Of a stretch of DNA of 64,000 nucleotides, positions 42,754-61,023 are shown piece by piece. A model generated the notes under the pieces. It did not search any database and was not told the origin of the DNA. It was given only the letters and a program-made list of their open reading frames with translations. The translations under genes and the position numbers were made by a program. Origin of the DNA: Acetatifactor sp. (GTDB lineage Bacteria > Bacillota > Clostridia > Lachnospirales > Lachnospiraceae); the NCBI GenBank assembly GCA_045615205.1, contig JAZLEI010000021.1, forward strand, positions 13,511 to 77,510. Reading direction: 5' to 3'. The first letter of the stretch is position 1, and each line of letters opens with the position of its first letter.

Positions 42754-44067
42754 ATGACTATGGGAATTCGTTCCTATATAATAAGATTAAAAATAATGAT
42801 TGCCGGTGGGATTGTTATGGGAGATGAGGTATTAGTGACAGAGACATTGAAAGCAAAACAGGGTATTTTGAATGAATTCCTAAGCGTGTTTGATAAGTTT
42901 GGAGCAGAGAAAAAGCATAAAGCAGACAGTACCTATGGATTCCTGTCAGATAACCTGTTGGTGCATAGTATAGTGGTATCACCTAATTTAAAAAGTGGCT
43001 TGTCGAGCTTGAAGACTTTTTTCGCTACGGAAGCAATGGAAATATACAAAGGTAAGCAATCGTCCAAGATATCCTATAAAAATATTCAGGAGCATTTGGA
43101 AGGCAGCAACAATAAAAAATATAGATTTTCCTATGAGGTATTAGAGAAAATCATGCAGAAAGAAATCAATAAAGATGCTTTTCTAAATGAAGCACGAATC
43201 ATGCGAAGTAACACGGACATGTGTGAAATGATAAAAGAGTATGATGATTGGCTGCCTTATATATTGTTGGATCAGCTTCGCAAAACTGCATGGGAAATGT
43301 TGGATAAATATAATCAGATTTGTATAGAGGCTGAGGAGGATACGGAAAATAGAAAAAAGCTGTTGTATTATCAATTTACGCAGGCAGTGGCCATGTTTGA
43401 AATGTTTATGATAGAGTACGTGAAGAAACCGCTTAGAAAATGTATCCAAAAGGAACTGGTGTTGATAGAGAAAATCAAGGAAACAGCGGAGAAGCTTAAG
43501 ATTTGGGAGGAGAGTATACAGGAAAAGGTTGTTAGGATTTCCGGGCAGATGGAAGACAAGTATCATATGGGAAGTGAGATACAACATGACGTAATGACGT
43601 TGGTGGCAGAATATAATCTATTTGTTTCAGAAAACATAGAGGAGTTGACAGGAAACACTAATAAGATTAGCATACTGCATTTAGTAGAGGCAGAATTTGG
43701 GGTAGAGCTATGTGCCATGCTTCATTTGCTGTTAGTATTGGAAGCAGTAAATGTATATGAAGAAAATATGGATTCGCCGCAGATAGGGGCGAATATGGAT
43801 TGTGCATTTATGGGAGATTATGATAAATTTTTTGTATCCTTTGGGCGTACGAATGAGAATAAGAGAGCAGATTATCGAAGAGTGAATACCTATTTAGATA
43901 ACCTTTTATCAGAATATGCAGGCAAACCATATGATGTTAAAAAAACGGTAATTGCTTTTTTACAAGAATTAAGTACAGTAAGGACGAGTGGTGAAACGGA
44001 GCAATTTTATGGATTTTTGTGTGCGTTAGCATATCCGGTATATCGAAAGCTTGGAGGAGAAATATGA
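42754..44067 (+). CDS. Hypothetical protein, up to 437 aa, predicted mostly helical, no recognised motif
   Basis: Long ORF with coding-like composition. The likely start is internal: ATG 42817 (MGDEVL) lies 8 nt after GGTGGG, and a TATAAT at 42777-42782 falls inside the first codons of the track ORF. Confidence 0.6.
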   Translation: MTMGIRSYIIRLKIMIAGGIVMGDEVLVTETLKAKQGILNEFLSVFDKFGAEKKHKADSTYGFLSDNLLVHSIVVSPNLKSGLSSLKTFFATEAMEIYKGKQSSKISYKNIQEHLEGSNNKKYRFSYEVLEKIMQKEINKDAFLNEARIMRSNTDMCEMIKEYDDWLPYILLDQLRKTAWEMLDKYNQICIEAEEDTENRKKLLYYQFTQAVAMFEMFMIEYVKKPLRKCIQKELVLIEKIKETAEKLKIWEESIQEKVVRISGQMEDKYHMGSEIQHDVMTLVAEYNLFVSENIEELTGNTNKISILHLVEAEFGVELCAMLHLLLVLEAVNVYEENMDSPQIGANMDCAFMGDYDKFFVSFGRTNENKRADYRRVNTYLDNLLSEYAGKPYDVKKTVIAFLQELSTVRTSGETEQFYGFLCALAYPVYRKLGGEI

Positions 44068-44299: not shown

Positions 44300-45889
44300 A
44301 TGTTAAAAGAGTGGTTCTTGGTAAGCAAACATGATGTACTAGGGGAGAAAAGGTATGCTCTGGCAGGGCTGATATATGGGAGCAGTGTTCTGGAGGATGG
44401 TGAATTTATTTCTACGCCTACGATTCAGAAGGCGATTGAGGACAAGGAGAAGGAGTGTATAGTGTTTTTGTCCGGAAATAGTCAATATATCTGCTATTGG
44501 AAAGATTGTGCATTTGAAAAAGGTGATACCGCAAGGTATCTGGAAGCTTTTTATGATTATAGGGAAAAGTATGTAGATCGTAAGCTATGGCAGTTACAGG
44601 ATAATAGTATATTGATACTGTTAAGCGGGGACTCTCCGAATTATTTTAAGCATGCCTTTTATAAAAGGCATGATGAATTGAGAAGAATAGAGGCGATGGA
44701 TGATATTAAGAGAGGCTATAAAATAATTTCCCCAGCACAGACCGAGGAGGAGAAAGAGGTAGTCATTGACCTTCGCTATTGTATTAGGGGGGAAAATGAA
44801 TTAAAGATGTTTTATGCTGATATACCGGAGGATATGGAGCTTTATGTGGAAAATCAGGGGAATGCACCATTGCATGTTGTCTGCGGTTTAGAAAGCTATA
44901 CGATAGAGGAAAAGGAGCGTGTTGCTATTTGTGTCAGAGATACTGCAGATTATATGGAATTTCTAAAAGATTGCGTGAATAGTACACAATTGCCAAGAAA
45001 GAAGGAACTCTTCAGTAAGGAAAAGGTATTTCAGGAAATGATGGAAGATGCACATAATGGTGTGAAAAAGAAGTACATGATTATTTTAGAAGGGGATGAT
45101 ATGAAAGAACTGCATTCGAAGGATGACAAAATAGTGGTATGTGCTTCCGGAGGGATTGCTTGCGCATTGTTGCTGGGAGAATATACATTGGCAAAGAAAC
45201 TGGCAGAGGCGGGGAGTGAGGTGCGTGTAGAGGAAACTATCAAGATAGTAATATATGATGATAAAAAAGGAAATATACAATACTCCTTGAATACACAATT
45301 GATGGAGTGTTTGGCAGATGATAAAGAGATGCCGGATGATGTATATGAAATTCTTTGGGGAAAAGCAAAAACTACGAATGCTCAGATGTTTAAAGGGATG
45401 TTGACATTAAAAATACGGTCTATGGTAGGCTGTAATAGCGAAATCATGTTATATAATGTCAAGCGTCTGCAAAAGGAATGGGAAGAAGCAGCTGATGAAT
45501 TGTTAAGGGCATGGATGAAATATTATTTTAATACTTATGCTGCAAACGAATATAGAATATGGGCAAAGGTATTTGAGGCCTTTCCGGATAAGCATCAACT
45601 TATCTTAGAGGAACTGCTGGCAAAGTATTTTAGTGTGAAGGGGATATATGGTATGGTATATCCTTCGGATGAGGGGCGTGTAAGGTTTTGTGCTTATTGG
45701 AAATTGTTTCAACACATTCTCGGTGAAGTGGCAAGGAAAAAATATGCTGTGTTCATGATACACTTCATGCTGAAAAGAGTATTCAGTATATCTGAAGAGA
45801 TGGAATGGTTTTGGGTACTGGTTCTGGCAGATATCAAGGATTTTGAAGATGAGGAAGTAGAGAAAAGAAATGAATGCGTACAGATGTAG
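44300..45889 (+). CDS. Hypothetical protein, 529 aa, no recognised motif
   Basis: GAGGAGG lies 8 nt upstream of ATG 44300. Long ORF with coding-like composition. Ends at TAG 45887-45889. Confidence 0.65.
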   Translation: MLKEWFLVSKHDVLGEKRYALAGLIYGSSVLEDGEFISTPTIQKAIEDKEKECIVFLSGNSQYICYWKDCAFEKGDTARYLEAFYDYREKYVDRKLWQLQDNSILILLSGDSPNYFKHAFYKRHDELRRIEAMDDIKRGYKIISPAQTEEEKEVVIDLRYCIRGENELKMFYADIPEDMELYVENQGNAPLHVVCGLESYTIEEKERVAICVRDTADYMEFLKDCVNSTQLPRKKELFSKEKVFQEMMEDAHNGVKKKYMIILEGDDMKELHSKDDKIVVCASGGIACALLLGEYTLAKKLAEAGSEVRVEETIKIVIYDDKKGNIQYSLNTQLMECLADDKEMPDDVYEILWGKAKTTNAQMFKGMLTLKIRSMVGCNSEIMLYNVKRLQKEWEEAADELLRAWMKYYFNTYAANEYRIWAKVFEAFPDKHQLILEELLAKYFSVKGIYGMVYPSDEGRVRFCAYWKLFQHILGEVARKKYAVFMIHFMLKRVFSISEEMEWFWVLVLADIKDFEDEEVEKRNECVQM

Positions 45890-54067: not shown

Positions 54068-55435
<1,368 letters not shown>

Positions 55436-55455
55436 AAAGATAGAGTGTGTCTTAG

Positions 55456-55489
55456 GGCGTCTGTACGAAAATGTGCAGGCGCCTTTTTT
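55456..55489 (+). terminator. Intrinsic terminator after gdhA
   Basis: Stem GGCGTCTGTAC / GTGCAGGCGCC (two G-U pairs) followed by TTTTTT. Confidence 0.8.
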
Positions 55490-55538
55490 AGAACAAATAC
55501 AAACTTAAAATTAAATGAGCAGATATCATAAAAAAACC

Positions 55539-55567
55539 TTGAAATATTTGGCAGATATTGCTATCAT
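55539..55567 (+). promoter_or_regulatory. Candidate promoter P1 (TTGAAA-17-TATCAT)
   Basis: CTTGAAA ... TATCATTA with a 17-nt spacer, upstream of the SHOCT/dynamin operon. Confidence 0.4.
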
Positions 55568-55584
55568 TAAAATATGTTATTGTC

Positions 55585-55613
55585 TTGAAAAAAGATGATT
55601 TTTTTGTTATCAT
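55585..55613 (+). promoter_or_regulatory. Candidate promoter P2 (TTGAAA-17-TATCAT), duplicate of P1
   Basis: Identical CTTGAAA and TATCATTA boxes with a 17-nt spacer, 46 nt downstream of P1. Confidence 0.4.
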
Positions 55614-55754
55614 TATAGCCAAAGACAGTACTTGCATGCTGAGGTTGCCGTTGGCAATCATGGGATGTGGAGTGATTTTTTTGTGTTTTATAAGTAAAAT
55701 AAGAGAAAATCCGGCTGCATAGAATAGTAGCAGGAATGAGAGGAGGCTAACTTT

Positions 55755-57392
55755 ATGGAAGGAACTCAAATTTTTACTTGTGTCCAGACTAATTCTGTAA
55801 GGAACCTGTTCAAAAAGGAAGAAGGAATGTTCCTGAAGGTAGAAGGAACTAAGATTTCCGGAAAAGGTAATATTTGTAATGCCGAAGGAAGAAATGGATA
55901 TCAGGATGAGTTTTCTTTTTCAATTCAGGAAATATCAGACATCAAGGAAGAAGATTATAATGGTGTGTCTGCATTGGCCTTTACCGCACAATTGAAAGGT
56001 TTGTATGGTAATAAGAAGGTAAAGATTTACATACCACAGCTGAAGCAACCTGCGGAAGCAATCAGTACCTTGAAGAAGTTGAAAGTAAGTGCCGGCGGAG
56101 AAGAGCCGAGTACACCTGCACCTACTAATCCGGTTCCGATTCCGGCAGTGGCACCTAAGGCGGCAGCACCTGCACCGAAGGAAGAAGCACCTGCACCGAA
56201 GGAAGAAGAGGCAACGAAGGAAGAAGCACCGAAAACCGTATATCGTCCGGTAGGAGAGGATTATCAGGGAGCACCTACACCAACACCTGTTGTAGAAAAA
56301 CCTGCACCGGAACCTGTTAAGGAACCCGAACCTGCACCTGTGCCGAAACCCGCACCGGTTGTGGAAGCACCTGCACCGGCAGTGGAAGAAGTTTCTGGTT
56401 CTGAAATGTCAGAGGAAGAATTCCAGAAGAGAATGGATAAGCTCAATGTATTAAAAGATTGTGGTTTGTTGGGAGAAAAGGAATTTACTGCTAAGAAGCT
56501 GGAATTGGTGAGCGAATACTTTGACTTGGGTGATTTTAACGAGCGTATCCAGAAGCTGATTGCGTTGAAGGATTGTGGTTTGTTGTCTGACAATGAGTTT
56601 GAACAGAATAGAATTGATGTAATCAAGGAATGTTGTGATTTGGATGTTCATGATATTCGTGAATATCGTCGTAATGTGCAGAAGTTGGCTTTCCTGGAAA
56701 TCGGTGAAGTAATTACTCCTGCAGAATATGCAAAGAGTAAGCAGAACTTAATCGATGATGTAGAGTTCAAGATTGAAGATGATAAGGAAGTATTCCAACG
56801 TAAATTGAAGAGATTGCCTGTATTGAAGGATTGTGCTTTGATTGAAGATGCTGAGTATGACAGCAAGGTGAGCGGTTTGGTGGAACTGCTTGAAGTGACC
56901 AAGAATGATTCCAGAGAATCCTTGGTGAATAAGCTTACCAAGTGGCCGTTGCTGGCACAGGAAAAATACATGACAGCTGATGAATTAAAGAACAAGCAGG
57001 ATGATTTAGTTGCTACCTATCTGGATGTTGTTTGGAAGACACCGGATGAGTTAAAGGCGATTATCAATCGTATGGGAGCACTGAGAGATGGTGAATGCTT
57101 GTCAGAAGCAGATTATCAGTCCCGACGTAGTACATTACTCCAGAATGTTGATGAAGTAGAAGAATATACCACCAGAATTGCTATGTACAAAATGCTTCCT
57201 CAGGTTGGATTTATTAGTAATGAGGAGTATGAGGCGTTGAAGCAGAAGTGTATTGATACAATATTTACTTCAAGTAATTCTGTAGCTGAGTTTAAGGAGA
57301 GAGCTAACCATTTGGTAGAACTCCATAAGGTTGGTATATTAACTACGGAAGAATTCAATGCATATAAGACCAAATTAATGAGTGAATTATAA
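55755..57392 (+). CDS. Protein with N-terminal globular domain, Pro/Ala/Glu-rich linker and eight tandem SHOCT-like repeats
   Basis: GAGAGGAGG RBS. Linker APAPKEEAPAPKEEE... Repeated modules of about 40 aa of the form hydrophobic-L(K/R)D-G-hydrophobic-(S/T)xxE(F/Y)xxxKxxL (e.g. LKDCGLLGEKEFTAKKLELV, LKDCGLLSDNEFEQNRIDVI, LHKVGILTTEEFNAYKTKLM). Confidence 0.7.
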   Translation: MEGTQIFTCVQTNSVRNLFKKEEGMFLKVEGTKISGKGNICNAEGRNGYQDEFSFSIQEISDIKEEDYNGVSALAFTAQLKGLYGNKKVKIYIPQLKQPAEAISTLKKLKVSAGGEEPSTPAPTNPVPIPAVAPKAAAPAPKEEAPAPKEEEATKEEAPKTVYRPVGEDYQGAPTPTPVVEKPAPEPVKEPEPAPVPKPAPVVEAPAPAVEEVSGSEMSEEEFQKRMDKLNVLKDCGLLGEKEFTAKKLELVSEYFDLGDFNERIQKLIALKDCGLLSDNEFEQNRIDVIKECCDLDVHDIREYRRNVQKLAFLEIGEVITPAEYAKSKQNLIDDVEFKIEDDKEVFQRKLKRLPVLKDCALIEDAEYDSKVSGLVELLEVTKNDSRESLVNKLTKWPLLAQEKYMTADELKNKQDDLVATYLDVVWKTPDELKAIINRMGALRDGECLSEADYQSRRSTLLQNVDEVEEYTTRIAMYKMLPQVGFISNEEYEALKQKCIDTIFTSSNSVAEFKERANHLVELHKVGILTTEEFNAYKTKLMSEL

Positions 57393-57438
57393 TTTGAGAG
57401 AATAAATGTGTTGTGAGCGACATTGGGAGGGAAGTATC

Positions 57439-59952
57439 ATGAAAGAATTGATGATAATGTATCATCCAGTGAAGAAGGAAATTCGCTTTTTAGCCAAGGT
57501 TAAGGGAGAGTTTATCGATGTTCCATATAAAATGTGTCCTAACCTTGTGAAGTATTCCCCTGAAAACGGAGAGTTTTTGTTGCAGAATCAGGGAAATCAG
57601 TTTTTTAATGATATATGGGAGCAGTTTTCCCGTGAAAAAATCAATCTGGTTTTCAAAGGAACCAAGGTTGACTATGAGGATTTTACGGAAAAGATAACAG
57701 AGTATAACAAGTCTGTAGGCGAGGATAGAATCCTAATTAAGGACTTTGTAGAGTTACCATCCGTAGATGAAATCTTTTCGCAGATTAATAAGTATTGTGA
57801 CGAGACGATTGCTCTTTTCGAAACAGAGCTTGAGGGTTCAGATGTTCAGGCGTTGTTCCAGAACCGTAAAGAAGAATTTGAAAAGAAGCGTAAGAAATTG
57901 AATTCCAGTGATATTAATTTATGTTTGGTTGGTACCTATAGTTCCGGTAAATCAACCTTTATCAATACCTTGATTGGTAAGAGAATTTTGCCGGAAAGTA
58001 TTAATTCCGAAACTGCCAAGATGTTCCGCATTCAGAATGATGAGGAACCTGCTGTATTGTTCAGTCTCAAGAAGAAAAATCTGAATGATAGTATTGAGGT
58101 GGCTATCATTTGGGATATTGAGAAGAAGCAGTTTGCTTTCACTTCAACTGGAAGCTGTGAGTATACCAGAAAACTTATTCAGAACGAAATTAATAATGCT
58201 TTGGTATTCCACTTGTTGCAGCATGAACAGTTGTATCAGATTTTGAAGTGTTTGAACAATGTACCGAATGTTCCTACGGAAGAGTGTGCGGAGTATATTG
58301 ATGGAATTATTGAAGTTCACTATCCGATACCTTTGGATCCGAATCTGAGCTTTACCTTTTATGATACACCGGGTACAGACAGTAACTCCAATGAGCATTT
58401 ATTGGTATTGCGTAAGGCATTGCATCAGCAGACCAACTCTATTTTGGTAATTCTTTATGAGCCTACCAAGATGGAAGGTACCGGTAACTCTATTCTTTAC
58501 AAGCTGATTAATTCTTCCAGAGAGAGTGCTGAAACAAAGGATAAGGTACATATTGACTTGAGCCGTTCTCTTCATATTATAAATCAGGCAGATACCAGAA
58601 GTCTTGCAGATTTGAATAATTTGCGTAACAAGAAGGTAGAGATTTCATTAAAGGAAACTGACAAGATTTATAATGAAGAAAACGAATATATTGATTTGTC
58701 AGAAGAAAGATTGTTTTTTGTATCTGCAAAGGCTGCATATATTGCAAAGGCTATTAAGAATAATGTGGATACAGAGGATGAGCGTTTGTGGTTGGCAAAC
58801 CATAGAAACGAAATCAATAATGTGCATGTAGAAGACCCATTGTTGTTAAAGAATGATAAGAGCGATATCGATACCGGTATGTTTTTCAAGCTTAACAAGA
58901 TGGCAAATGCAGATAATGAAACCAAGCAAATGCTTGCTGACTGTATGAAGGAACTGGAAAGCTGTGATGGCTCCGATGACAAGAGCTTAGCACCTATTTT
59001 ACATCGTATTTATGTAAATTCCGGTATGTATGCAGTAGAGCGTGAGATTATCAAATATGCACAGAAGTATGCCTTGGCAGTAAAAGCAAAGGGCTTATAC
59101 GATGGTATTTCCAGCGTCGTGAATTTTATTCGTGATGATTATGAAGCTATCGAAGCACAGGCATCCCTGTCAAAGCAACAGATTTCAGATAATATTGCTA
59201 CCATGAAGACCACTATGGTACAGGATATTGAGGCAGCATATGCCAGATATTTGTTTGAACTGGAGCCGGAAAACCTGGTGAATAAATTCGCAGAAGTAGA
59301 TGCACTGAAATCTATCGTTGACAGCCGTAAGGAACAGGCTGAGAAGATTGCAGATAAGATGAAGTGGATTGCTATTCGTCCGGAAGTATTCGAAGAGAAA
59401 AACAATATCATTTGTAATGAATTGAATCGTTTCTTATTAGAGATCGATGATTATTATAAGGAAGTCAGAGAGAGAATTCTGAAGCAGCAGATTGAAGAAT
59501 TGAGAGGTCTGTTGGTGAAGAAGATTACCGGGTACAAGGGAATTGACGAAGGTTTGGTTCGCAGAATCGCCAACGTATCAGATACCCAGGTACCACCATC
59601 TACCTTGGAAGCAATGAAGATGGATGAATACATTAACAAGCAGAAGGCAATCTTTATCTTCTCTACAAATGATAAGAAGTCATATAAGAATGATATTTGT
59701 GAGACTTTTGATAATACTACTAAACTGCAGTATGAATCCTATGTTGCTGAGATTATCGAGGTGGCAAGAACAAAGACCGCAGAGTTGATTCGGGAATTCA
59801 AGGAAAACATTGATATGATATCCAGCAATTTGGAATACCTTATTAATGATGAGAAGGAAGCAATTTCCAGACAGGCAAAAGCAAAGGCTGTATTGGATTT
59901 GGTAGAAAAGAGAGACAGGGAACTGAATCAGAAGATTTGGGGCAATATTTAA
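57439..59952 (+). CDS. Dynamin-family GTPase (bacterial dynamin-like protein)
   Basis: G1 GTYSSGKST, G3 DTPG, G4-like NQAD, then a long helical stalk-type C-terminus. About 165 aa precede the G domain. ATG 57439 follows GGGAGGG. Confidence 0.8.
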   Translation: MKELMIMYHPVKKEIRFLAKVKGEFIDVPYKMCPNLVKYSPENGEFLLQNQGNQFFNDIWEQFSREKINLVFKGTKVDYEDFTEKITEYNKSVGEDRILIKDFVELPSVDEIFSQINKYCDETIALFETELEGSDVQALFQNRKEEFEKKRKKLNSSDINLCLVGTYSSGKSTFINTLIGKRILPESINSETAKMFRIQNDEEPAVLFSLKKKNLNDSIEVAIIWDIEKKQFAFTSTGSCEYTRKLIQNEINNALVFHLLQHEQLYQILKCLNNVPNVPTEECAEYIDGIIEVHYPIPLDPNLSFTFYDTPGTDSNSNEHLLVLRKALHQQTNSILVILYEPTKMEGTGNSILYKLINSSRESAETKDKVHIDLSRSLHIINQADTRSLADLNNLRNKKVEISLKETDKIYNEENEYIDLSEERLFFVSAKAAYIAKAIKNNVDTEDERLWLANHRNEINNVHVEDPLLLKNDKSDIDTGMFFKLNKMANADNETKQMLADCMKELESCDGSDDKSLAPILHRIYVNSGMYAVEREIIKYAQKYALAVKAKGLYDGISSVVNFIRDDYEAIEAQASLSKQQISDNIATMKTTMVQDIEAAYARYLFELEPENLVNKFAEVDALKSIVDSRKEQAEKIADKMKWIAIRPEVFEEKNNIICNELNRFLLEIDDYYKEVRERILKQQIEELRGLLVKKITGYKGIDEGLVRRIANVSDTQVPPSTLEAMKMDEYINKQKAIFIFSTNDKKSYKNDICETFDNTTKLQYESYVAEIIEVARTKTAELIREFKENIDMISSNLEYLINDEKEAISRQAKAKAVLDLVEKRDRELNQKIWGNI

Positions 59953-59957
59953 AAATG

Positions 59958-59993
59958 AGCGTTGTTCTATAGTGATATGGAACAACGCTTTTT
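59958..59993 (+). terminator. Intrinsic terminator after the dynamin-like gene
   Basis: 10-bp perfect stem AGCGTTGTTC / GAACAACGCT followed by TTTT. Confidence 0.8.
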
Positions 59994-60063
59994 ATCTATC
60001 AAGGCTTTACCATTGAATAGATAGTATAATATAGCATAAATAAAGATAGGAGAAGGAACAGCA

Positions 60064-61023
60064 ATGATAACTACACCTTGTGATAAAAACGCAATACCGG
60101 AAGTACATCGGGTATTAGAATACTTAAACAGTATAGAAGGAAAGGCAATTATTACCGGACAGCATACCCAGTCCATGGGAATGGAAGAGGTGGAATGCAT
60201 TTTTCGGGAAACCGGGAAACTCCCGGCACTTTGTGGCTTTGAGCTATTAGCCTATTCCCCTAATATTAATTGGGTGGATGCTGATGCGGAATGTTTAACG
60301 GAAATAAAGGAAGCCTCAGGTACTTTGGCAAAAGCCTATGAATGGGCAGAGAAAAAGGGGCTGATTACATTAACCTGGCATTGGTTTTCCCCCTTGGGTG
60401 GCAGAGATAAATCCTTTTATACAGAAAGGACTGATTTCGATGCAGAGAAGGCTTTGTGCGAAGGAACATTAGAACATTTCGCTATGTGCCATGATTTGGA
60501 TATTATGGCAGAATTGCTTCGCGGTTTTCAGGAAAAACAGATTCCCATATTGTGGAGACCATTTCATGAGGCAGAAGGGCAGTGGTTTTGGTGGGGAGCA
60601 AAGGGAGCAGATGTGGCCAGACGCCTGTATCGCTTCATGTTCCATTACTTCACAGAAAAGCATCAGCTGCATAATTTGATTTGGGTGTGGAATTCCCCCT
60701 TGGAGGAAGGCTATGTGGGAGACGCGTACTGTGATATTATCACCAGAGACATGTATCCACCGGCACATGAGCATAGTGATTTCGCAGAAAAGTGGGAAGA
60801 GCTGACTAAGCTTACTCCTACCAAGAAAGGAATTGCCATAGGGGAAATTGGCGTGATACCATCCGGAGATGCTTTGGCGGAAGCCAAGGTGCCATGGCTT
60901 TGGTATATGACCTGGAGTCACGATTTTTGCCTGACAGAACGCTTTAATACTTGGGAAGAACTGAAAAAACTCTATGATCATCCATGGACAGTGACCTTGG
61001 ATACATTACCGGAATTATATTAA
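60064..61023 (+). CDS. Glycoside hydrolase family 26 (beta-mannanase-like), no signal peptide
   Basis: GH26-type blocks TLTWHWFSP and LWRPFHEAEGQWFWWG. Confidence 0.8.
   Translation: MITTPCDKNAIPEVHRVLEYLNSIEGKAIITGQHTQSMGMEEVECIFRETGKLPALCGFELLAYSPNINWVDADAECLTEIKEASGTLAKAYEWAEKKGLITLTWHWFSPLGGRDKSFYTERTDFDAEKALCEGTLEHFAMCHDLDIMAELLRGFQEKQIPILWRPFHEAEGQWFWWGAKGADVARRLYRFMFHYFTEKHQLHNLIWVWNSPLEEGYVGDAYCDIITRDMYPPAHEHSDFAEKWEELTKLTPTKKGIAIGEIGVIPSGDALAEAKVPWLWYMTWSHDFCLTERFNTWEELKKLYDHPWTVTLDTLPELY

Follow-up and report, generated by a model that had tools for sequence, protein, structure and literature searches.

Two neighboring genes on the forward strand of an Acetatifactor sp. chromosome were examined in this study: gene A, which encodes a protein carrying an array of eight SHOCT domains, and gene B, which encodes a solitary dynamin-like protein (DLP) with a GTPase domain. 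Both lie in the 64,000-nucleotide stretch that was analyzed (assembly GCA_045615205.1, contig JAZLEI010000021.1, positions 13,511 to 77,510; hereafter the window). On balance, and with modest confidence, the pair is read here as a lineage-specific (Acetatifactor-like) bicistron of two otherwise independent, vertically inherited and probably membrane-peripheral proteins. The arrangement most likely reflects a recent joining of two separate housekeeping genes rather than a conserved membrane-surveillance or anti-phage module. The lineage-specific bicistron is favored because both genes are older, are vertically inherited, have sigma-A-type promoters and are usually found apart. An earlier note on this DNA had proposed that the two genes form a distinct membrane-surveillance or defense module, a proposal that was not supported: the tandem arrangement was found at 2 of 49 orthologous loci and the divergent arrangement at 1 of 49, neither protein matched a known defense system in PADLOC, and the genomic context is one of housekeeping genes.

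A conserved genomic association of the two genes, which the earlier note had set beforehand as the test of its proposal, proved to be largely absent. The scan of DLP loci used one genome per species and yielded 80 loci, which were searched with tblastn and with a hidden Markov model (HMM) of the SHOCT-array family; 49 species-level loci were evaluable as orthologues, with a DLP at least 54% identical to that of the window and at least 2 kb of upstream sequence. A SHOCT gene stood in tandem with the DLP gene at two of the 49 (L009 and L010) and divergent from it at one (L016), and exact-protein look-ups added two further tandem cases (L007 and L008). The tandem order is found only in the window and in L007, L008, L009 and L010, all with a DLP identity of 78% or more. 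Spacers in these four loci measure 45-59 nt, and the flanks of the tandem loci vary, with gdhA, a methyl-accepting chemotaxis protein (MCP) gene or a xerC-like gene upstream and GH26 or topA downstream. In a sister clade (DLP identity 71-76%) the two genes are divergent in L016, 3-7 kb apart on opposite strands in L001-L004, L092-L094, L101-L105 and L117-L118, and separated by 20 kb, one at either end of a type IV pilus cluster, in L005/L006 (one contig, GCA_054283005.1). Most DLP loci at 54-76% identity contain no SHOCT-array gene in flanks of up to 10 kb, even when searched with the family HMM, and the same is true of the remaining orthologous loci (54-73% identity, flanks up to 10 kb), where the neighbors are housekeeping genes that vary from locus to locus: deoD, udg, hisF, yaaT and holB (recognized by eye from representative sequences). 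The SHOCT-array genes, for their part, take three positions: in the rng/rplU-rpmA-obg interval, directly upstream of topA-codY, or in tandem with the DLP gene, the first two being the usual ones. Those in the rng/rplU-rpmA-obg interval are the most diverse set (38-46% identity) and have no DLP gene within 10 kb. Adjacency is not kept across the phylogenetic range of both families. The tandem order is derived and limited to one Acetatifactor-like subclade; it arose in a rearrangement-prone neighborhood beside topA and the type IV pilus cluster, and the two genes are not supported as a module that works as a system. The suggestion that such a pairing had not been described is in keeping with the literature search, which found no paper linking SHOCT with dynamin.

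Within the window the pair is laid out as the earlier note had it, with two genes 46 nt apart and a terminator on each side. The open reading frames (ORFs) run from 55755 to 57392 for gene A (+, 545 aa) and from 57406 or 57439 to 59952 for gene B (+). The ATG at 57439 is the most likely start of gene B, as a GGGAGGG ribosome-binding site precedes it and virtually all homologues are 835-842 aa long; the alternative in-frame ATG upstream, at 57406, would give 848 aa. A start at 57439 leaves the spacer of 46 nt (57393-57438, +), which holds the GGGAGGG site and in which no terminator and no promoter were found, its folding being not beyond chance (z +0.7). The 5' boundary of the unit is the intrinsic terminator of the upstream gdhA (gene identified by Pfam) at 55454-55491 (+; 13-bp stem at 55454-55485 and a U-run, -23 kcal/mol, z -5.3). 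The unit is closed by a second intrinsic terminator, located by pattern scan and folding, at 59957-59995 (+; 15-bp stem at 59957-59990 and a U-run, -21 kcal/mol, z -6.9). With so short a spacer, free of any terminator, and a strong terminator on each flank, A and B probably share one transcript and form a bicistronic unit in the window.

A consensus scan placed a sigma-A-type promoter of gene A (TTGAAA-17-TATCAT with an extended -10 TG) at 55585-55613 (+), and its -35 and extended -10 elements are kept in 5 of 5 tandem loci. A second, near-identical promoter-like site (TTGAAA-17-TATCAT, extended -10 TG) lies at 55539-55567, 46 nt from the first; of the two, only the downstream site is kept in all five. 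SHOCT-array genes in every genomic context carry a TTGAAA-17-TGnTATnAT promoter of their own, with a leader hairpin and a U-tract after it. In the window this hairpin and U-tract occupy 55617-55690 (+) in the 5' untranslated region of gene A (-23.8 kcal/mol, z -2.45) and could act as an attenuator or as an mRNA-stabilizing 5' stem. Equivalent hairpins were folded at L008:8215-8300 (z -4.7) and L007:8142-8232 (z -2.1), while the hairpin and U-run upstream of SHOCT genes in the rng-rplU and topA contexts were read by eye from the sequences. The hairpin and U-tract lie 30-50 nt past the promoter of the SHOCT-array gene, are also seen upstream in L089, L092, L095 and L110, and differ in sequence among clades while the hairpin-plus-U layout persists. 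An Rfam scan of 55300-60200 returned nothing relevant, leaving the leader hairpin unmatched and giving a lone chance miRNA match on the terminator. DLP genes in non-tandem loci have their own near-perfect TTGACA-17-TATAAT promoter 60-100 nt upstream. No such promoter stands in the 46-nt spacer ahead of gene B in the window, which is too short for one, and the only match is a weak internal one at 57312-57340.

Gene B (57439-59952, +; 837 aa) passes the Pfam cut-off for Dynamin_N (61.7 bits versus 27), and over 323 clusters of homologues, annotated 'dynamin family protein', are found in Lachnospiraceae/Acetatifactor. Its AlphaFold2 (AF2) model, with a predicted local distance difference test (pLDDT) score of 83, comprises an N-terminal alpha/beta domain, two neck helices (residues 109-154), a G domain and a helical trunk (482-834). 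The N-terminal domain (residues 1-105; 57439-57753, +; pLDDT ~90) is specific to the family, carries the motifs YHPxxKE, LQxxGxxFF and TxxDYEDF, and is kept across 34 relatives down to 23% identity; no Pfam model matches these 105 aa. The GTPase domain, delimited by motif search (residues ~158-460; 57910-58818, +), contains G1 (GTYSSGKS, residues 165-172, 57931-57954), G2 (T192), G3 (DTPG, residues 309-312, 58363-58374) and G4 (NQAD, residues 382-385, 58582-58593). Across the same 34 relatives G165, G170, K171, S172, T192, D309, T310, P311 and G312 are invariant, and N382 and D385 nearly so. The helical neck and trunk (residues ~482-835; 58882-59943, +) contain long AF2 helices at 545-607, 648-697, 746-795 and 799-834, and in the predicted model a dynamin-type neck and trunk folds back on the G domain. 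The trunk tip bears a basic-plus-hydrophobic loop, KQKAIFIFS (~residues 728-740), whose aromatic/hydrophobic pattern is kept in the family alignment and which is a candidate membrane paddle through which the protein might bind membrane; the protein has no transmembrane segment, its highest 19-residue hydropathy being below 1.0. What had been reported earlier from the letters alone was recovered here, namely the motifs GTYSSGKS(T), DTPG and NQAD, a segment of about 165 aa before the G domain (G1 begins at residue 165 in the 837-aa numbering) and a long helical C-terminal region (AF2 helices 482-834).

Foldseek matched the gene B model at probability 1.0 to SynDLP, BDLP, IniA, Cj-DLP1/2, mitofusins, Drp1 and OPA1, the SynDLP, BDLP, IniA and Cj-DLP matches being to full-length proteins, and a sequence-profile search found the same set (best 5owv_C at 1.7e-8 and 2j68 at 5.4e-8). 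Gene B belongs to the BDLP/mitofusin class as a solitary DLP that has one conserved domain more at its N-terminus. Like BDLP of Nostoc (2J68/2J69), DLP1/2 of C. jejuni (5OWV), IniA of M. smegmatis (6J72) and the mitofusins, it has a G1-G4 domain preceded by neck helices and followed by a long helical trunk. It differs from this class in its low identity (~12%), in the additional 105-aa domain at its N-terminus and in having no transmembrane or long hydrophobic paddle but a short basic-plus-aromatic tip loop. Furthermore, Cj-DLP1/2 and IniA/IniC have a second DLP gene adjacent, whereas gene B has none: it encodes a single G domain, gene A encodes no GTPase, a tblastn search of the window with the DLP returns gene B alone, and no second DLP stands beside the DLP gene in 55 orthologous loci. 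Gene B was rightly called solitary, with no dynamin partner adjoining it, and gene A was rightly said not to be a second dynamin (Pfam identifies no GTPase there). The other ground on which the module proposal might have failed, grouping of the DLP with paired DynA/BDLP genes, does not apply, as the DLP is solitary throughout the Lachnospiraceae orthologue group. SynDLP, too, is a bacterial DLP that stands alone and functions with no second DLP as partner. It is also the top structural match of gene B (Synechocystis Slr0869, 7ZW6; E 2.4e-12), but comes from another phylum, is 12% identical and has no equivalent of the N-terminal domain. DynA of B. subtilis belongs to the same superfamily, and the NCBIfam DynA model weakly matches gene B around the P-loop; however, DynA is a two-headed fusion of ~1190 aa, while gene B has one G domain. 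The NCBIfam equivalogs remained below threshold (DynA, NF052648, 42.2 bits versus 1600; CrfC, NF007368, 19 bits versus 1146), and the other NCBIfam matches were sub-threshold small-GTPase matches only. Literature searches combining dynamin-like with Lachnospiraceae, and BDLP with Clostridia and sporulation, found nothing pertinent.

Gene A (55755-57392, +; 545 aa, AF2 mean pLDDT 80) has homologues in 98 clusters, all from Lachnospiraceae, and its AF2 model was built on 40 homologues. Residues 1-112 (55755-56090, +) are predicted to form a PH/PTB-like beta-sandwich with a C-terminal helix cap, modeled as seven strands and a helix at 99-112 (pLDDT ~90). Foldseek matched this head to the PH domain of SIN1, the PTB domain of Dok1 and the PH domain of kindlin with probabilities of 0.97-1.0, template modeling (TM) scores of 0.4-0.5 and weak E-values (0.02-0.1), and no Pfam model, bPH models included, matches residues 1-112. 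A disordered linker rich in Pro, Ala, Glu and Lys follows (residues 113-219; 56091-56411, +; pLDDT below 50, heavily gapped alignment columns), the length and sequence of which are free to vary among homologues. The linker DNA (56100-56400) consists of imperfect 21-nt repeats (7 aa, APAPKEE-like) and differs in nearly every homologue, which suggests, from the sequences compared, rapid repeat expansion and contraction. This linker prompted the idea that gene A encodes a secreted or surface protein, which was rejected, since a sequence scan found no signal peptide and no transmembrane segment; gene A, like gene B, is read as coding for a cytoplasmic protein.

The remainder of gene A (residues 220-545; 56412-57389, +) holds eight SHOCT two-helix hairpins, modeled by AF2 as 16 helices with pLDDT ~90. 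The eight-fold array anticipated by the earlier note is borne out by Pfam (SHOCT, 47.1 bits versus a cut-off of 27, with three stretches passing individually), by eight mutually alignable units of 37-43 aa (consensus EEFxxRxxKLxxLxDxGxLxxxEYxxxK) and by the eight modeled hairpins. Each repeat is kept position by position across the 40 homologues, and Foldseek gives weak solenoid-type matches for the repeat region (e.g., importin, ARM); the hairpins are predicted by the model to stack into a rigid alpha-solenoid. Gene A shares with other SHOCT proteins (PF09851) both a score above the Pfam threshold and a repeat consensus that is the SHOCT helix-hairpin. SHOCT has been documented elsewhere in combination with PH-like and SPFH domains (PMC3581485), and gene A has a predicted PH-like head. 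On the other hand, SHOCT is normally present as a single C-terminal copy and the one reported array of eight copies is that of a Naegleria protein (PMC3581485), whereas in gene A the eight copies follow a predicted PH-like domain and a disordered linker and together make up a single predicted solenoid that is conserved. The original description of SHOCT tested oligomerization, which was not supported, and noted that SHOCT co-occurs with band-7 domains and with bacterial PH domains (Eberhardt et al. 2013, PMC3581485); a comparative study predicted that SHOCT anchors domains at the inner membrane leaflet (PMC11237479). The literature on SHOCT function consists of predictions only, and gene A is an uncharacterized architecture of a known domain. 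An eight-SHOCT solenoid that is conserved and well modeled, with a PH-like head, could offer an entry point to SHOCT function.

Taken together with the promoter pattern, these features allow a tentative account of the pair. Gene B most likely attaches to the cytoplasmic membrane from the inside, by way of the basic and hydrophobic loop at its trunk tip, and, judging from its family, would undergo GTP-dependent self-assembly to tether, remodel or reseal membrane. Gene A is most likely a sub-membrane scaffold or adaptor, as its predicted fold and the published inner-leaflet prediction for SHOCT would suggest. In the tandem subclade gene B appears to have lost its own TTGACA-17-TATAAT promoter and would now be read through from the gene A promoter, and a functional link may lie behind this co-expression or may have resulted from it. 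Functional coupling of A and B is possible, but such a link is not a conserved property of either family. Several observations weigh against this reading. The pair has stayed together in the tandem subclade while both flanks changed, and in the sister clade the two genes lie within 0.3-20 kb of each other despite inversions, which is above expectation for unrelated genes, although all of those genomes also share topA-codY-flagellar synteny. In addition, the two families do not seem to extend beyond one and the same group of Lachnospiraceae, as would be expected from a common function or from a common ancestry, and the PH-like assignment of gene A, on which its placement near the membrane partly draws, comes from structure prediction and has Foldseek E-values that are weak. 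The retention of the pair and the loose linkage can be explained equally well by the synteny that related genomes share.

A less probable explanation, and one we would call unlikely, is that A and B constitute a true two-component membrane-remodeling module in which the PH-like/SHOCT-solenoid protein is a trans-acting adaptor or scaffold and the genes need not always be adjacent. Gene A would then take the role of the in-cis PH domain of eukaryotic dynamin, or of the second DLP in paired systems. This would account for the likely co-transcription in the window and four other species, for the persistence of the pair through rearrangement of both flanks and for the loose linkage (0.3-20 kb) in the sister clade. 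It is also compatible with the finding that a single contig of GCA_054283005.1 carries both genes in unlinked positions (P0210 and L018 probably come from one species as well), with a DLP that has no transmembrane segment and merely a short candidate paddle, and with the predicted PH-like fold and SHOCT units of gene A, both of which are membrane-associated. However, adjacency occurs in just 3 of the 49 species-level orthologous loci, each gene elsewhere has its own promoter and a housekeeping position, the DLP family ranges far beyond the SHOCT-array family (893 versus 98 hits), and distant DLP relatives have quite different conserved partners. The narrower proposition that, in the Acetatifactor subclade, gene A is a dedicated trans-acting membrane adaptor for the solitary DLP, so that PH-type lipid binding comes from a separate co-transcribed polypeptide, is more doubtful still. 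If it were true, it would provide the first concrete function for a SHOCT array, and an interaction between A and B would represent a bacterial case of a dynamin with its PH domain supplied in trans.

It is quite improbable that the two genes serve the type IV pilus machinery as accessory factors, for example in membrane remodeling or scaffolding at the pilus base, and were kept by the lineage of the window after the pilus cluster had been lost or moved. The DLP gene is immediately convergent to the last gene of that cluster in L001-L005, L011, L012, L015, L016 and L092-L094, and in GCA_054283005.1 the SHOCT-array gene heads the cluster, directly upstream of a PilT-like ATPase. With a convergent orientation, however, the DLP gene would not be transcribed together with the cluster; pilus genes are missing from the vicinity of most DLP orthologues (54-73% identity) and of the SHOCT genes of the rng-rplU type; and no homologue was found by tblastn of pilus query proteins against the window or among the 20 window genes scanned with Pfam. 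The sister-clade cluster itself includes a prepilin peptidase, PilM-like and N-methyl pilin genes and a pilin-like protein of 660-700 aa.

DLPs have been linked to phage resistance, and distant relatives of gene B share operons of the conflict type with genes for WYL regulators, HerA-like ATPases and nuclease toxins, yet an anti-phage module akin to Eleos (the LeoABC dynamins) or to DynA-type phage tolerance is very improbable here, given that PADLOC has no match for gene A or gene B, that there is no LeoB or LeoC partner, that the NCBIfam DynA score is 42 bits against a cut-off of 1600, that the gene is vertically inherited and single-copy in a conserved housekeeping neighborhood rather than a defense island, that there is no mobile-element signature, and that the orthologues, which come from many species, are 54-93% identical and have promoters of a constitutive type. 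The PADLOC run covered both proteins against PADLOC-DB v2, which should include the Leo models, and returned no family at E <=1 for either. Both the three-gene Leo layout and the defense-island context of the Eleos/LeoABC 'Dynamins' system are absent at the gene B locus.

The surroundings in the window are consistent with this. Pfam identified murA, ftsZ, spoIIGA, sigE, nrdR, shikimate genes, efp and gdhA upstream of the pair, while on the downstream side it identified GH26, RNase H and a DHH phosphoesterase; the window belongs to the core chromosome, with housekeeping surroundings, and is not a defense island. Two ORFs upstream of the sigma-factor gene (42754-44067, 437 aa, and 44300-45889, 529 aa) match no Pfam family at E <=0.001. 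The presence of spoIIGA and sigE prompted consideration of sporulation-specific expression, which was rejected, as both genes have sigma-A-type promoters. No mobile-element repeats flank the pair in the window, and GC content dips slightly over the DLP gene (0.37 versus ~0.42). Origin of the pair through a mobile element or horizontal transfer was likewise rejected, given the absence of flanking repeats, the small GC dip and a xerC-like recombinase that lies upstream only in L007.

For the wider family, an exhaustive search for relatives of gene B returned 893, of which 85 had E <1e-30, with many full-length at 27-44% identity. Distant relatives are found in Lachnospiraceae, Oscillospiraceae, Eubacterium, Treponema and other Spirochaetia, Coriobacteriaceae and Xylanimicrobium, and stand in an operon that is conserved across several phyla and ordered WYL/WCX regulator, DLP, transmembrane protein (~130-150 aa), DUF87/HerA-type ATPase (~1050-1250 aa), polymorphic toxin and immunity protein. 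The toxins end in a variable C-terminal nuclease domain (LHH, Ntox15, colicin-DNase/WHH or GH-E) with a matching SUKH or Tdi1 immunity protein. These operons, all outside the window, were located at L068:1296-9606, L074:8983-17425, L078:9014-16940, L081:9935-17385 and L084:9929-17083, and also in L082, L083, L085, L086 and L088; PADLOC recognizes their WYL and HerA parts only. The operon DLPs share with gene B the full-length architecture, including the N-terminal YHPxxKE domain (25-34% identity), but gene B has none of these partners and belongs to a separate, solitary Lachnospiraceae clade. UBA7480 carries both types, a solitary DLP at L039 and an operon DLP at L078. This context indicates that the conserved partners of the DLP subfamily, where there are any, are not SHOCT proteins.

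Literature searches combining polymorphic toxin with dynamin, and dynamin with HerA and SUKH, found no paper linking DLPs with polymorphic toxins, and the WYL-DLP-HerA-toxin operon may be an undescribed toxin-delivery or conflict system. It is of more interest than the A-B pair, which taken alone matters little, being a lineage-restricted gene order in uncultured gut Lachnospiraceae with both proteins in known superfamilies. The subfamily as a whole consists of uncharacterized, widespread DLPs with a conserved N-terminal domain, encoded both by a solitary housekeeping-type gene and within toxin-bearing operons. Acetatifactor genomes also contain a second DLP paralogue (L062-L077 and L087) that is 31-33% identical to gene B and aligns with it over residues 4-613 only. 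It often lies near MoxR-like AAA ATPase and VWA/metallopeptidase-like genes (recognized by eye), with an opposite-strand permease gene in between.

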